Positions 3,553-12,652 are shown, counted from the first letter of the stretch. The stretch is DNA of 28,966 nucleotides from an uncultured Candidatus Sumerlaeota bacterium (GCA_964533125.1 CAZHIT010000001.1:1-28966), one strand, 5' to 3'. A program made the numbers and translations. The notes: generated by a model from the letters alone, not told the origin.

Positions 3553-3671
3553 CCTGGCCGTCCGGAGGGTGCGGGTCCAACTGCTCCGCAGCGGATTTTT
3601 AGGCATGTGGTCGGGGTGGCCTGCGCAATAGCGGAACATTTTGTGATTGGGACTTAGAGGAGTTGAGAGCG

Positions 3672-5015
3672 GTGGCGGTGGCGACTGAAAGCCGGGACCG
3701 GGCGGTGCCCTTGCGGGAAATCCTGTTCTTTTTCCTCCCGTTGATGCTGACCTCGATGCTGATGATGACTTCTCATTCCATCGTCACCGGCGGGATCGCC
3801 CGGACGATAGCGCCGGTCGCGTCCATGGCGGCCTATTCGGTGGGGTCGAACATCGCGTTTATGGGGGAAGGCCCTTCGGTTATGATGCGGCAGATGACCT
3901 TGGCTCTGATCAGGGGCCGGAAGTCGTTTGCGACGGCGGTCCGGGTGGGAGTGGTTACACTCGGGCTGGTGTTGTTGGTTGGCTTCGCGATCGGCTATAC
4001 CGCGCTCGGCCGGGTGGTCTTTACCAGACTGCTGGGGGTACCGGAGGAGCTGATGCTGGCGACGCTGACCGTCTATCGAGTGACCATGTTTGTGGCTGCT
4101 TCTTCGGCGCTGCGGTCGTTTTTCCAGGGCACGCTGATTTTGCGCCGTCGGACTTTTTTGGTTACCCAGGCGATGATCGCCCGGATTTCGGTGATGGCGG
4201 TGCTGGTGTATTGTTTTAACCATTACCATTGGGTGCAGGGCAGTCTAGTCGGGGCGATCACGATCCTGGCGGGGATGAGCACGGAGGCGATCTATAACGC
4301 GGTCCGGGGTTTTCGTCACGTCGCCCGGCTGGAAGACGATTTCCCCGGTCAGGACCGGGCGGCCGACTTTGGCCAGGTGGTGCGGTTTTTCTATCCGCTG
4401 GTGCTGGCGGCGCTGGCGGCCAGTTTGGCCCGGCCGGTGATTAACGCGGGGCTGGCGCGGACGGCCGACCCGGTGGTGGCGCTCGCCGCCTTCTCGGTCG
4501 CGACCTCCGTCGGTTTTATCATCGTCAGCCCGACCCAGAACGTGCATCAGGTGGTGCTGGTGTTTTTGCGGGGGAAGGAAAGCTATGCGGCGGTGCGCCG
4601 GTTTGTTTTGGGTTTTGGCCTGTGCGGCTTTGCGGCTCTGGGGCTGGTGGCGGTAACACCGTTTGGCGCCTGGCTGCTGCGGCAGGTCGTCGGAGTCGAT
4701 CCTTCAGTTGTGGCGCCCACCCTGCAGTCGATGCGGGTGTTCAGCCTTTTGCCTCTGGTGATGAGTTTGGGTGAGTTTTACACCGGCTTGCTGCTGCTGC
4801 GCCAGCAGACCCGGCTGATCAGCGCGGCCAAAGCGGCGAACCTGGCGGTGGTGGTGGCGGTGGTCCTCCTGCTGCCCCGGGTGTTCCCGGCGGCGGGCAG
4901 CAGCAGCGGGGCTATCGCGATGGTCTCCGGGACCGGGGCCGAGGCAATCATGGTCTATTTGGCCTCCCGGCGCCTGGTGGTAGCGTCCGATTTGCCGGCG
5001 GGCGGAGCGGGGTAG
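3672..5015 (+). CDS. MOP/MATE-superfamily membrane transporter, ANKH-like, ~447 aa
   Basis: About 12 hydrophobic segments in two repeated halves (FFFLPL...GIAR / FFYPL...RPVINAGLAR); GTG 3672 is 9 nt after GAGGAG; see finding for ANKH similarity. Confidence 0.8.
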   Translation: MAVATESRDRAVPLREILFFFLPLMLTSMLMMTSHSIVTGGIARTIAPVASMAAYSVGSNIAFMGEGPSVMMRQMTLALIRGRKSFATAVRVGVVTLGLVLLVGFAIGYTALGRVVFTRLLGVPEELMLATLTVYRVTMFVAASSALRSFFQGTLILRRRTFLVTQAMIARISVMAVLVYCFNHYHWVQGSLVGAITILAGMSTEAIYNAVRGFRHVARLEDDFPGQDRAADFGQVVRFFYPLVLAALAASLARPVINAGLARTADPVVALAAFSVATSVGFIIVSPTQNVHQVVLVFLRGKESYAAVRRFVLGFGLCGFAALGLVAVTPFGAWLLRQVVGVDPSVVAPTLQSMRVFSLLPLVMSLGEFYTGLLLLRQQTRLISAAKAANLAVVVAVVLLLPRVFPAAGSSSGAIAMVSGTGAEAIMVYLASRRLVVASDLPAGGAG

Positions 5016-8888: not shown

Positions 8889-9446
8889 TTATTCCGCTTC
8901 GCTGCCGCGTTTGGGTTTAAACACGACGGAGGGATTGGTCAGACCGGGGTCGGCGAGGTGCCTTACCCGGTTGGTCACTCCCGCTTTTTTTTGCAGTTCT
9001 TCGATCGGGCCAAAGTCCAGGGCGCGCATGGGGCAGGCTTCGACGCAGACCGGTTTTTGGCCGTCCCGGAGGCGCGGGAGGCAGAGGTTGCATTTGCTGA
9101 CCTTTTTAACGGCTGGATCGTATTTGGGCGCGCCGTAGGGGCAGGCCCAGGTACAGTAACGACAGCCGAGGCAGCGGGTGGGGTCGTGGACGACGATGCC
9201 GTCTTCCGGCCGCTTGGTGTAGGCGCCGGCCGGGCAGACCCGGCGGCAGGCCGGGTTTTCGCAGTGGTTACAGGCCAGGGAGAGGTTGTAGACCCAGGTG
9301 GCCGGGTAGGTCCCACCTTCGATGGTCTTCACTTCCCGCCAGCCTGGTCCAAATTCCCGGTCGTTCCAGTCTTTGCAGGCGATGGCACAGGTATGGCAGC
9401 CGATGCAGCGGGAGAGGTCGACGGAAAAGCCGAGTTGTGCGGTCAT
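8889..9446 (-). CDS. dmsB: DmsB-like 4x[4Fe-4S] electron-transfer subunit, 185 aa
   Basis: CIGCHTCAIAC, CNHCENPACRRVC, CLGCRYCTWAC, KCNLC...CVEAC (16 Cys); ATG overlaps the upstream stop (ATGA at 9446-9443) with RBS GAGGTG. Confidence 0.92.
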   Translation of the reverse strand: MTAQLGFSVDLSRCIGCHTCAIACKDWNDREFGPGWREVKTIEGGTYPATWVYNLSLACNHCENPACRRVCPAGAYTKRPEDGIVVHDPTRCLGCRYCTWACPYGAPKYDPAVKKVSKCNLCLPRLRDGQKPVCVEACPMRALDFGPIEELQKKAGVTNRVRHLADPGLTNPSVVFKPKRGSEAE

Positions 9447-12400
9447 GAAATCCACCTCTCATTCTCCGGGGCGGCGGCCACTTCCACCAGGGTGGTGTGG
9501 GTGGTGGACGCCCGGGCGTAAGGGGTCGGCCGGTCGAGATTGAGGACATTGGTATTGGCGCCGCGGTCCTGGCCGGAAGCGTCCGGGCTGAACCAGGCGC
9601 CTTGGTGGACGTTGACCACCCCAGGCATGATCCGGCCGGTGACCTTGGCCGCAAGGATGATGGCGCCGCGGTCGTTATAGACCCGGACCGGGTCGCCGTC
9701 CTTAATCCCCCGCCGGGCGGCATCGGCGGCGTTAATCCAGACCTGGTGGGGTTGGATGGCCCGCGGATAGGGGTTGTTGTCGTGGGAGGAGTGAACCCGC
9801 TGTTTGCTGTGGGCGGTAACTAATTGCAGTGGGTATTTTTGGGCCAGAGGGTCGGCCGGGCCTTCCCAGGGGTCGATGTGCCGGGGGATGGCCGGGATCT
9901 CCGGGTCATTCAGTTCGGCCAGGCGCTCGGAGTAAATCTCGATCTTCCCGGAGGGGGTGGCAAAGGGTTTGCCCTTCTGGATTTGTTCGGTGAAGGCAAT
10001 GTAGGGCTTCTTGCGCTTGTCGCGGTAGATCCCGGTGCGCTTGAACTCGTCGTAATCCTTGATCCCGGCGGCGGCAGCAAACTCCCGCAGCCAGTCTTCT
10101 TCGCTCTTACCTTCGGTGAAGGTATCACCGAAGCCCAGACGCTCCGCCAGGGCGGCGAAGATTTCGTAGTCGGATTTGGACTCGTACAGGGAATCGATGA
10201 CCTTGTTGGCGTAGAGGAGATAGTTGCCCTGCTGGGTGCCGGGAAAACAGATGTCGTTTCGCTCGAGGAAAGTGTTGGCCGGCAGGATGATGTCCGAATA
10301 CTTAGCCGTAGGGGTCATAAATTGCTCGTGGCAGACGATGAACTCGGCCTGCCGGAAGGCTTCGATGTTTTTGTGGACATTGGCGCCCTGGTTTAGGAGG
10401 TTGCCGCCGACCATGTAGATCATTTTGATGTCGCTGGGGTAACCGCCGGCCTTGCCGCGCAGAATCAGGTCGGCCCAGACATAGACCGGCACCCGGGCGG
10501 CGGGATTCGGGTCCGGCGGGATGGGCAGGCCGGGGATGGAGGGGACGCGGCTGTAGTCGACGCCGCCGGTGTTGCCGCCGGGAATGCCGATGTTGCCGGT
10601 CATGGCCGCTAAGGTGATCGCCAGGCGGACCGGCTGTTCACCGTAGGCGGTCCGCTGCAGCGACCAGCCGCAGAGAAGAGCGCCCGGTTTGGCCTGGGCG
10701 TAAGAGAGGGCCAGGTCGCGGGTCGTGGTGGCCGGCACGCCGGTGATGGCCTCAGCCCAGGCGGGGGTTTTGGGGATGCCGTCGCTCTCCCCCCGGACGT
10801 AAGCCGCAAATGTTTCAAAACCGTGGGTGAACCGGTCCAGGAAGGACTGGTCGTGCAAGTTGGCCTCCAGAATGCAGTAAGCCATGGCTACCATCAGGGC
10901 TGAGTCGGTGCCCGGCCGGATGGGGATCCATTGGTCGGCCAGGATGGAGGCGGAGTCGGTACACACGGGGTCGATGGCCACGACTTTGGTCCCCTGCTCG
11001 CGGGCGCGGGCGACAAACCAACTGGTATTGGTCCCGCGAACTCCCTCGGCCGGGCTGAACCCCCAGAGGATGATTAAGTTGGAGTTGAGCAGATCGGCCC
11101 GGTCGTTGCCGGTGAGGCAGGTGCCGCACATGTGCTCGGTGATGATATCCGTCGTTTCGCAGCTATAGCTGCCGAAGAGGACGGTGCGGCAGCCGAACTG
11201 GTTGAGGAAGCGGTCCACGGTCAGCTGGTGGAGCTTGCCGCCGAAGGCGCCGGAGCGGGAAAGGTCGAGGATGGCCGCGTCACCGTAAGTATCTTTAACC
11301 CGCTGCATTTCGCGGGCGACCGTATCCAGGGCTTCTTCCCAACTGATCCGGACGAACTTAGCCTCGCCCCGCTCACCGACCCGCTTGAGGGGCCAGCGCA
11401 GGCGTTCCGGGTGGTAGACCCGCTTCAGATAAGCCCGACCCTTGGCGCAGGCCCGGAGCTGAGGGCTGATGAGCGAAGCATCGTCGGAGGTGTTATCGGT
11501 GGTCAGGTGGACGATTACCCCATCTTTAACATGGGCGAGGAGAACGCATTTGCCGCCGCAGTTGTTGACGCAGGTGGTGGGGATGATCTTTGTTTCTCCA
11601 TCGGCCAAAATGGCGGGCGGAGCATAATCCGCGGGCGAACCCAGAGGAATGCTGCCGGGGTTCATCGCCGGTGTCCAGGGGTCGATCTCGGTCTGCAGGC
11701 GGTCACCTGCGGCCGGCAGGGGGGCCGGGACGACGGTGGCAAAGAACAGACCCCGCTCCAGCAACTCCCCGAGCAGCATCCCCGTTAGGGCGAGGGTATG
11801 GCTGAGCGCCGGATTGAAGTCAAAGACGAGAAAGAGCGCCGGCAGGAAGAAGCCGAGCCCGAGACGGGCCAGGGTGAACCGACGGCCGGGGGTCAGGAGG
11901 AGATGATGGGTCAGTTTAGTTTCGGCGCTCAGCTGCCCAAAGGCGGACAGGCGCAGCCACCACAGGCTAAAGCCCAGGAGGAGAGCGGCGAGGGTGGCAA
12001 GGCGTAAGGGGATCAGAGGCCAGGGCAGGCGGGCAGCCGGGACCAGGAGCCAGGTCAGGACGGGCCCGAAAGAGGCAGCGGCGGTGAACAGGCCGGCCGA
12101 TTGAGTCCAGTGGTACCAGGCCGGCCGGTGGGGCAGGCGGTATATGGCCCCGGTGGCCGCGAGGGCCGCGATCCCGGCCAGCATAGCAGCCTGGGCCAGG
12201 GGGGCGGCGGCCGCGGGCGAGATGATCTCCCGCTGGGCCAGGTACAGCAAGCCCAGCAGGGTGGCAAACCCGCCAAACGCAAGGGCCTCCCGGCTCAGCC
12301 AGGAGCGGGTGAAGTTGCGCAGCGCGGTATAGAAGCGCCAGGGCTGGTTTAAGTGCAGGAAAGCGGCCCCGGCAGCGACCGCCGTCAGGCCCAGCAGCCA

Positions 12401-12538
12401 AAGGTTGACCGCCGGGGTATTGAGCCCGGTCAGCCGGGTGGTGATCAAGGTACCCACCACCAGCGGTTCCAGCACCGCCATAATGATCAGAGGCAGCTCG
12501 GCGCGCAGGGCGGCCGGGAAATTCAGCTTATCTTTCAT
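9443..12538 (-). CDS. Fusion of DmsC/YnfH-type 8-TM membrane anchor (aa ~15-270) and DmsA/YnfE-type molybdopterin catalytic subunit (aa ~315-1031), no Tat signal
   Basis: Anchor motifs ELPL, FLHLNQPWR, SWLSRE, IY...PAW, GELLERGLFF; catalytic motifs CVNNCGGKC...RAC, HPERLRWPLKRVGERG, GSYS, IRPGTDSAL, YPLQLVTAHSKQRVHS; one uninterrupted ORF; ATG 12538 after GGAGGA. Confidence 0.9.
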   Translation of the reverse strand: MKDKLNFPAALRAELPLIIMAVLEPLVVGTLITTRLTGLNTPAVNLWLLGLTAVAAGAAFLHLNQPWRFYTALRNFTRSWLSREALAFGGFATLLGLLYLAQREIISPAAAAPLAQAAMLAGIAALAATGAIYRLPHRPAWYHWTQSAGLFTAAASFGPVLTWLLVPAARLPWPLIPLRLATLAALLLGFSLWWLRLSAFGQLSAETKLTHHLLLTPGRRFTLARLGLGFFLPALFLVFDFNPALSHTLALTGMLLGELLERGLFFATVVPAPLPAAGDRLQTEIDPWTPAMNPGSIPLGSPADYAPPAILADGETKIIPTTCVNNCGGKCVLLAHVKDGVIVHLTTDNTSDDASLISPQLRACAKGRAYLKRVYHPERLRWPLKRVGERGEAKFVRISWEEALDTVAREMQRVKDTYGDAAILDLSRSGAFGGKLHQLTVDRFLNQFGCRTVLFGSYSCETTDIITEHMCGTCLTGNDRADLLNSNLIILWGFSPAEGVRGTNTSWFVARAREQGTKVVAIDPVCTDSASILADQWIPIRPGTDSALMVAMAYCILEANLHDQSFLDRFTHGFETFAAYVRGESDGIPKTPAWAEAITGVPATTTRDLALSYAQAKPGALLCGWSLQRTAYGEQPVRLAITLAAMTGNIGIPGGNTGGVDYSRVPSIPGLPIPPDPNPAARVPVYVWADLILRGKAGGYPSDIKMIYMVGGNLLNQGANVHKNIEAFRQAEFIVCHEQFMTPTAKYSDIILPANTFLERNDICFPGTQQGNYLLYANKVIDSLYESKSDYEIFAALAERLGFGDTFTEGKSEEDWLREFAAAAGIKDYDEFKRTGIYRDKRKKPYIAFTEQIQKGKPFATPSGKIEIYSERLAELNDPEIPAIPRHIDPWEGPADPLAQKYPLQLVTAHSKQRVHSSHDNNPYPRAIQPHQVWINAADAARRGIKDGDPVRVYNDRGAIILAAKVTGRIMPGVVNVHQGAWFSPDASGQDRGANTNVLNLDRPTPYARASTTHTTLVEVAAAPENERWIS

Positions 12539-12652
12539 TGGCAGTCCTCCCATTCTGGTCCGTCAGCCGCAGTTCCTTGCAGCTCTGGGCTGATTGGCAT
12601 AAGTATTCGCCGGGCGGCGGCGTTTCCCTGCCGGCGGCGTGGGCGGAGAAGC

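Follow-up and report, generated by a model that had tools for sequence, protein, structure and literature searches.

Can a complex of the DmsABC kind be turned so that its entire hydrophilic part lies on the cytoplasmic side of the membrane? This question is raised by a 28,966-nt stretch of DNA from an uncultured Candidatus Sumerlaeota bacterium (GCA_964533125.1, CAZHIT010000001.1:1-28966), referred to here at its full length as the window. On its minus strand a single gene, which we call dmsCA (9443..12538), encodes a DmsC-type membrane anchor, a linker and a DmsA/YnfE-type catalytic domain in one polypeptide, and is followed by dmsB. An earlier note on this DNA had read the pair as a reductase that faces the cytoplasm and does not depend on twin-arginine translocation (Tat), a reading that we follow up here computationally. 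Judging from sequence comparisons, we consider it fairly probable that the two genes encode a membrane-bound molybdoenzyme of the DmsABC kind with its whole hydrophilic part facing the cytoplasm.

Architecture of the fused gene

A single open reading frame (ORF) runs over 9443..12553 (minus strand) in the ORF listing and would give 1036 amino acids (aa). The interval 12539..12553 (minus) holds this upstream in-frame ATG (12553) and a GGGAGGA Shine-Dalgarno sequence, which lies 7 nt upstream of a second ATG at 12538. We set the start by this Shine-Dalgarno, giving a product of 1031 aa plus stop, which the protein database lists as P0001. Along this product Pfam recognizes a DmsC domain (residues 19-270; 33.6 bits against a gathering score of 22.3), then Molybdop_Fe4S4 (322-381), Molybdopterin (384-805, E 4e-53) and Molydop_binding (909-1021); the top NCBIfam model is TIGR02166 dmsA_ynfE, which scores 697.5 bits over residues 308-1026 and does not reach its curated cut-off of 777.7. 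The ORF listing, Pfam and NCBIfam thus bear out the earlier description of one 1031-aa ORF uniting a DmsC-type anchor and a DmsA/YnfE-type domain. The closest solved structures in a PDB search are Rhodobacter dimethyl sulfoxide (DMSO) reductases and trimethylamine N-oxide (TMAO) reductases (E 1e-112 to 1e-83); these matches are catalytic subunits only, and no solved structure pairs a DmsC-type anchor with such an enzyme.

The anchor domain occupies residues 1-270 (11729..12538, minus) and was assigned to the DmsC family (PF04976) by Pfam, hydropathy and AlphaFold2. Hydropathy and the secondary structure of an AlphaFold2 model run on the fusion agree on eight long helices (residues 7-37, 42-64, 80-102, 108-132, 139-164, 173-197, 223-238 and 243-269), the eight transmembrane (TM) helices that had been proposed, with two short helices within loops 2-3 and 6-7. 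The score above the gathering threshold, the eight helices and the His/Glu quinol-site pair described below place the domain within PF04976; no NCBIfam model names the anchor class of the fusion. The AlphaFold2 model was read for secondary structure and the predicted local distance difference test (pLDDT) only, so it assigns no face to the catalytic domain.

Anchor and catalytic domain are joined by a linker (residues 271-316; 11591..11728, minus) that is rich in proline and has a pLDDT below 50. The absence of a twin-arginine motif, a hydrophobic region and an internal ribosome-binding site, as had been claimed for this linker, was upheld: 10 of its 46 residues are proline and one is arginine, its 19-residue hydropathy stays at or below 1.0 throughout, and its sole internal ATG has no Shine-Dalgarno. 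Half of the linker is common to the window and to a second fusion, P0002, introduced below (VVPAP.PA.G....EIDPW.P..N.G.IPLG...DY). The conserved motif within it, EIDPW-P--N-G-IPLG---DY, lies in a predicted disordered region and may be a segment on which DmsB docks. At its end, DYAPPA..G..KIIPTTC matches the N-terminus of free-standing Tat-less DmsA relatives, one of which (P0005) starts MDYSLFPP..G.AIIPTTC, and comparison with the free-standing anchor P0060 shows that the anchor's own tail extends to about EID. Because the anchor tail and the DmsA N-terminus are both recognizable within the linker, the junction looks like a simple end-to-start join of dmsC to dmsA.

The catalytic part begins with the FS0 [4Fe-4S] domain at residues 317-381 (11396..11590, minus; Pfam and alignment) and continues with the molybdenum bis(pyranopterin guanine dinucleotide) (Mo-bisPGD) body made up of Molybdopterin and Molydop_binding (9446..11395, minus). 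Cys323, Cys327, Cys331 and Cys364, together with Ser459 (codon 11162-11164, minus), align with the FS0 cysteines and Ser205 (precursor numbering) of Escherichia coli DmsA, in agreement with the CxxxCxxxC motif starting at Cys323 and the serine ligand reported for this gene before. Ser205 corresponds to Ser176 of the old numbering, the Mo ligand that Trieber and co-workers are said to have described in 1996. The dmsB gene (8889..9446, minus) encodes a 185-aa four-cluster ferredoxin subunit with no signal peptide from an ATG at 9446, which overlaps the TGA of the fusion as ATGA at 9443-9446 and has a GAGGTGG site upstream, so the translational coupling and lack of signal proposed for dmsB were both seen. 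DmsB scores 210.7 bits with TIGR02951 (cut-off 214.1), and its 16 cysteines fall into four groups when judged against E. coli DmsB.

The fusion in other assemblies and its history

A second fusion, P0002 (1032 aa), shares 67% identity with the window's protein over the full length and 48% within the anchor; synonymous sites are saturated for a dN/dS comparison of the two. Two assemblies carry P0002, a 287-kb JGI contig and, independently, a Logan contig from another run, and the two fusions share one locus layout of hisZ, dmsCA-dmsB and a convergent gene for an ATP-binding cassette F (ABC-F) protein. The frame of P0002 is continuous and its partly conserved linker has neither a stop nor a Tat signal. 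The recurrence of the fusion in P0002 shows that it is not an artefact.

The earlier note had called for the distribution of DmsC plus Molybdopterin architectures to be mapped, and P0002 is the only one besides the window in the databases searched. A full-length search of 5.8e9 proteins gave no further fusion. An anchor-plus-linker profile matched 1572 of 1.84e9 representatives, and the best 150 of these matches include no long protein bearing an N-terminal DmsC; this library is clustered at 50% identity, and a fusion may hide behind a plain DmsA representative, as the window's own protein is itself unlisted. A word-indexed search with the anchor profile returned 9 weak matches only, GTDB species genomes contained six loci that were all DmsA only (the best from a Ca. 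Sumerlaeota metagenome-assembled genome, MAG), JGI metagenome contigs gave the P0002 contig alone, and plasmids gave neither a junction-spanning nor an anchor match. We found no description of a DmsC-DmsA fusion or of a Tat-less DmsABC in the literature. The C-A fusion, known from two lineages and one decayed copy, seems to be very rare and not to have been described before.

In a neighbour-joining tree built from catalytic domains, the grouping (window,(P0002,(P0003,P0004))) is sister to P0005 and P0006, the latter being the Ca. Sumerlaeota MAG, and the Tat-bearing relatives P0007 and P0029 fall outside the group that runs from the window to P0006. Both P0005 and P0006 are dmsA-dmsB pairs with neither signal nor anchor, and P0005 keeps the ABC-F neighbour. 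In composition the Ca. Sumerlaeota MAG is very different, with a tetranucleotide r of about -0.1. At the same hisZ/ABC-F locus, P0004 (737 aa) has no anchor, nor any remnant of one within its 570-bp spacer. P0003 (802 aa; L006:8001-10409) has in-frame internal deletions that leave only TM1 and TM8 of the anchor before DmsA; these two helices could tether it to the membrane with no quinol site present. The simplest reading of these relationships is that the anchor was gained once in a Tat-less cytoplasmic DmsAB lineage and then decayed in one sub-lineage. On this reading, dmsC would have become attached, on one occasion, to the 5' end of a dmsA lacking a Tat signal, within a dmsA-dmsB pair adjoining hisZ, and the fusion would later have been partly deleted in P0003 and lost in P0004.

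Predicted orientation and quinol-site residues

The best-supported orientation places DmsA, DmsB and the quinol site on the cytoplasmic side, with both anchor termini inside (N-in/C-in). Lysine and arginine in the N-terminus and loops 2-3, 4-5 and 6-7 outnumber those in the other loops by 14 to 3 in the window, the enrichment of basic residues first pointed out in the earlier note, and by 15 to 2 in P0002; on the same loop sets E. coli DmsC has 3 vs 6. In E. coli DmsC the quinol site and the peripheral subunits are on the positive (P) side of the membrane (PMC8076601). Over 86 free-standing DmsC homologues this difference is bimodal, with 57 of the window type, 25 of the E. coli type and 4 ambiguous. 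All 58 signal-less DmsB-DmsC fusions examined show the window-type bias, and they serve as an internal control because their signal-less N-terminal iron-sulfur (FeS) domain must be cytoplasmic. Many of the DmsC homologues (P0061-P0216) are C-terminal domains of 400-640-aa proteins in which the N-terminal part is a Tat-less, DmsB-like four-cluster ferredoxin, and a subset of these B-C fusions, including P0072, P0082, P0084, P0104 and P0117, has a common N-terminal extension (..LTAVERFA..H....YR.LIP....G.QYAFEVDLD.C).

Periplasmic molybdopterin proteins are obligately Tat-dependent (PMC10924467), and neither fusion has a twin arginine at its N-terminus or in its linker. The window does have an RR in loop 6-7, in the sequence GRRFTL before TM7, where P0002 has FRGYTL; this twin-arginine-like stretch, PGRRFTLARLGLGFF, is followed by a hydrophobic run (11860-11885, minus), and its P0002 counterpart, DFRGYTLTRAAVGW, lacks the RR. 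Loop 7-8, which precedes the last helix, is devoid of Arg and Lys. Since the number of helices is even (eight, or two in P0003), the catalytic domain should lie on the same side as the N-terminus.

The closest free-standing anchor, P0060 (132 bits), is encoded third in a Tat-less A-B-C operon (L022:5402-8894), and so is P0220 (L023:5389-8903); each operon consists of a DmsA-like subunit of 673-677 aa, DmsB and the anchor. The A subunit begins MGKTVRTACPRNCYSTCG, directly at the FS0 cysteines and without a leader, and is a more distant DmsA-like paralogue (TIGR02166, about 376 bits). P0220 and the fusion P0002 come from the same two samples, and their contigs are nearly identical in tetranucleotide usage (r = 0.98); P0060 and the anchor-less P0004 are probably from one MAG, their NCBI accessions being close. 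The two operons are probably in the same genomes as P0002 and P0004, where they would encode a paralogous cytoplasm-facing complex. Both operons adjoin two acetate-kinase genes. As a prediction, the N-in/C-in topology that had been proposed is backed by the inverted charge bias, the B-C fusions, the Tat-less A partner of the nearest anchors and the anchor-less sister DmsAB pairs. A broader proposal, to which we give somewhat less than even credence, is that most DmsC anchors near that of the window are inverted (57/86 free-standing, 58/58 B-C fusions) and serve a large and largely undescribed class of Tat-independent, cytoplasm-facing, quinone-linked molybdoenzymes.

The key residues of the quinol site are shared by the two orientation classes. 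A family alignment puts His62 (codon 12353..12355, minus) and Glu84 (codon 12287..12289, minus) on E. coli DmsC His65, of the quinol site, and Glu87, as had been proposed when the locus was first described. For Glu87 a role in menaquinol binding is attributed to Geijer & Weiner 2004 in the reference list of PMC6303296. Among the homologues, 114 of 115 of the N-in class and all 25 of the N-out class have histidine at the position of His62, and Glu84 is invariant within both classes. More widely, H62, S79, W80, S82, R83, E84, W141, E258 and R262 are conserved across the two classes, with E258 and R262 lying in the family-wide GE..R motif of TM8. Because the pocket residues are invariant irrespective of orientation class, they indicate that the quinol pocket adjoining DmsB is retained.

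Comparison with known systems

The modules of the fusion are those of E. coli DmsABC/YnfEFGH (menaquinol:DMSO or selenate reductase): a Ser-ligated Mo-bisPGD subunit with the FS0 CxxxCxxxC...C motif, a four-cluster DmsB and an eight-TM, haem-free DmsC anchor with His65/Glu87. In both, as predicted for the fusion, the AB dimer is on the side of the membrane where the anchor has its two termini, and the two half-reactions take place on one side. However, the E. coli complex consists of three separate polypeptides in the order A-B-C, as had been stated and as we confirmed, whereas here C and A are fused and B follows; there is no Tat leader on A (the E. coli SRRGLVK has no counterpart) and no DmsD gene nearby, and the inverted Lys+Arg bias of the anchor predicts a cytoplasmic rather than a periplasmic face. 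The absent leader, the different order with the anchor fused to A and the opposite charge bias together mean that this is not a canonical DmsABC.

The sulfite:quinone oxidoreductase SoeABC of Allochromatium vinosum, Aquifex aeolicus and Ruegeria pomeroyi is likewise a membrane-bound Mo/FeS/anchor complex without signal peptides (PMC6335251). Its NrfD/DmsC-like anchor SoeC is expected to be inverted, with SoeAB and the quinone site on the negative (N) side (PMC8076601), an arrangement credited there to Dahl et al. 2013. The fusion has the same traits of signal-less A and B and an anchor of predicted N-in charge bias. In contrast, SoeABC has three separate subunits and is a dehydrogenase, and SoeA belongs to the bSreA/SoeA lineage (PMC10100899). 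The best family matches of the fusion are DmsA, YnfE, BisC and TorA, with no SoeA model among its NCBIfam matches; going by these matches, the catalytic domain belongs with DmsA/YnfE and not with SoeA/bSreA, which argues against a SoeABC. The inverted complex put forward in the earlier note is thus supported in silico, but it is not unprecedented, as SoeABC is also thought to be inverted and the lineage has a Tat-less A-B-C version of its own.

The closest kin of the fusion are uncharacterised metagenomic systems, namely the Tat-less A-B-C operons (P0060/L022 and P0220/L023) and the DmsB-DmsC fusions. The operons have the nearest anchors, the same charge bias and the same lineage and samples, but in these systems the anchor is a separate protein after B or sits on the C-terminus of B, never on the N-terminus of A. 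Two kinds of soluble cytoplasmic relative, BisC (a biotin/Met sulfoxide reductase) and the Tat-less DmsAB pairs P0004-P0006, share with the fusion the Mo-bisPGD S-/N-oxide reductase fold and the lack of an export signal. BisC is not known to have FS0, DmsB or an anchor, and P0004-P0006 have FS0 and DmsB without the anchor. The class of polytopic proteins inserted by both Sec and Tat was also considered as a match; the conserved RR in the loop before the final TM helix, by which this class is described in work attributed to Tooke et al. 2017, was not found in the fusion.

Proposed mechanism and alternative explanations

From these comparisons a working mechanism can be proposed. The N-terminal anchor, of the N-in class of the DmsC family, would be inserted co-translationally via Sec/YidC, and its C-terminus would emerge in the cytoplasm, with the DmsA-type domain attached to it through some 45 flexible linker residues. 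The catalytic domain would receive FS0 and Mo-bisPGD in the cytoplasm, and as it would never be exported, no Tat signal would be needed. DmsB, made by coupled translation, would dock between the anchor and the FS0 domain, and the linker could pass around it, as 45 extended residues span well over 100 Å. Menaquinol bound at His62/Glu84, near the cytoplasmic face, would give its electrons to the DmsB clusters FS4-FS1, from where they would pass to FS0 and the Ser459-ligated Mo, and an S- or N-oxide would be reduced inside the cell. Quinol would give up its protons on the side from which those for the substrate are drawn. With both half-reactions predicted on the same side the enzyme would be electroneutral, as the earlier note suggested, but this is not distinctive, for the same applies to canonical DmsABC. 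Candidate substrates include permeant DMSO or TMAO, and intracellular methionine or biotin sulfoxide.

Several points weigh against this mechanism. The topology prediction rests on the positive-inside rule and comparative logic, and confidence in the anchor part of the AlphaFold2 model is low to moderate (pLDDT 40-80). The TIGR02166 and TIGR02951 scores (697.5 vs 777.7 and 210.7 vs 214.1) are both under the curated equivalog cut-offs, so the substrate of E. coli DmsAB cannot be transferred to the fusion, and the window has no regulator, transporter or cofactor gene that hints at a physiological role. As P0003 and P0004 show, AB can persist after its anchor is lost, with no quinol anchor of its own, and quinol coupling may therefore not be essential.

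If the cytoplasm-facing geometry is accepted, the same complex could run backwards, as a substrate:quinone dehydrogenase that oxidises a cytoplasmic compound and passes the electrons to the quinone pool, in the way SoeABC does with sulfite. The only inverted NrfD/DmsC-like anchor complex described, SoeABC, is a dehydrogenase, the sequence does not reveal the direction of electron flow, and the scores are under the DmsA and DmsB equivalog cut-offs. We nevertheless consider this unlikely, as the catalytic domain plainly belongs to the Ser-ligated DmsA/YnfE/BisC/TorA type and its best solved relatives are the DMSO and TMAO reductases noted above. Enzymes of this type that have been characterised are, as far as is known, reductases. 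Judged by its best family matches, the fusion is also not of the SoeA/bSreA lineage as described in PMC10100899. Another possibility is that the anchor is a mere tether or a decaying remnant, leaving AB effectively soluble and fed by another donor, for example a ferredoxin or a paralogous A-B-C anchor, with the fused quinol site unused. P0003 has lost TM2-TM7 and P0004 the whole anchor, yet dmsAB is intact in both at this locus; P0005 and P0006, the sister lineages, never possessed an anchor, and the probable MAG of P0004 has P0060 as well, in an A-B-C operon of its own. Both full fusions, however, retain eight helices and every family-invariant quinol-site residue in anchors that are only 48% identical, and about 305 codons have stayed free of stops and frameshifts in two lineages, which makes a disused anchor quite improbable.

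Export of the catalytic domain would give the opposite geometry, with the polytopic part inserted by Sec, the last helix and folded Mo domain handled by Tat, and the complex facing outward as in E. coli. Such a Sec/Tat route is known from the Rieske proteins of actinobacteria and from certain polytopic molybdoproteins (Tooke et al. 2017, as cited in PMC10924467), and PGRRFTLARLGLGFFLPALFLVF before TM7 does present a twin arginine followed by a hydrophobic stretch. This RR is not conserved, though, as P0002, the only other fusion, reads DFRGYTLTR; it precedes TM7 and not the last helix, and loop 7-8 offers no Arg or Lys in its place. TM8 with its GE..R motif (E258, R262) belongs in the membrane, the eight helices and the charge bias put the C-terminus inside, DmsB has no signal, and close relatives have neither signal nor anchor, so that we regard export as very unlikely. 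That two genes were united only by an assembly artefact or an isolated read-through mutation has a negligible chance of being right: the fusion is known from two lineages only, but P0002 carries it at 67% identity, in a continuous frame with a partly conserved linker, at the same locus in the JGI and a separate Logan assembly, which excludes a private event, and P0003 retains both ends of the anchor in frame with DmsA. A cytoplasm-facing reductase of the DmsABC kind remains the explanation we prefer.

Neighbouring genes

The locus is flanked by a convergent ABC-F ATPase gene on one side and, on the other, by a divergent acetamidase/formamidase gene followed by the his operon (hisZ). No TorD/DmsD-type gene is adjacent to dmsCA-dmsB, in keeping with the earlier note, and the window as a whole has no chaperone or Tat gene, nor any for a cofactor or a regulator. 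A promoter scan gave nothing exceeding chance. The acetamidase/formamidase-family gene (PF03069; 12700-13603, plus strand), which lies between dmsCA and hisZ and is divergent from dmsCA, is missing at that position in the related loci L001, L004 and L006, which makes it a lineage-specific insertion. At L003:165-5027 the his genes are broken into many short ORFs, and L004 and L005 are intact with the same DmsA; the splitting is probably the result of an error-rich assembly and not real decay.

In P0032 (969 aa), a Tat-less DmsA relative is joined to a PF02613 (TorD/NarJ/DmsD-type chaperone) domain, which hints that cytoplasmic members might still use a PF02613-type chaperone for cofactor insertion. 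Elsewhere in the window, residues 235-404 of an ORF at 3663-5015 (plus strand) match the ANKH family PF07260 (progressive ankylosis, pyrophosphate/ATP export), which, going by the Pfam family name alone, we take to be an animal protein family.

Implications

The fusion would resemble DmsABC in its modules and electron path and SoeABC in its geometry. A review of NrfD-like anchors names SoeC as the single exception to a P-side quinone site and peripheral subunits (PMC8076601); the principle of a cytoplasm-facing Mo/FeS/anchor complex therefore has a precedent, but the C-A fusion is a new and rare architecture within a known, little-studied kind of enzyme. Its bearing on the orientation of respiratory enzymes lies in the fact that a DmsA-type enzyme is here tied physically to an anchor of opposite predicted orientation. 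The N-in bias, being dominant among the nearest DmsC homologues and coincident with signal-less partners, may be the more important lead.

The locus offers a test case for whether a haem-free, eight-helix anchor works in either orientation, for how a Mo-bisPGD/FeS enzyme matures and attaches to the membrane without Tat proofreading, and for the role of quinol-linked S-/N-oxide reductases inside the cell, such as respiration of permeant DMSO or TMAO or repair of methionine or biotin that has become oxidised. A single anchor-catalytic polypeptide with DmsB might also be easier to express heterologously than a Tat-dependent complex of three subunits. If the broader proposal of an inverted class is true, the covalent bond between C and A would serve as a natural topology reporter, showing that a whole DmsABC-type module can be flipped across the membrane, and the gene pair would offer, in just two polypeptides, a minimal system in which to study quinol-site function and the assembly of Mo-enzymes with neither Tat nor a redox enzyme maturation protein (REMP). 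Under the mechanism proposed above, what would set this enzyme apart from canonical DmsABC is the side of the membrane on which its substrate lies and its independence of Tat.

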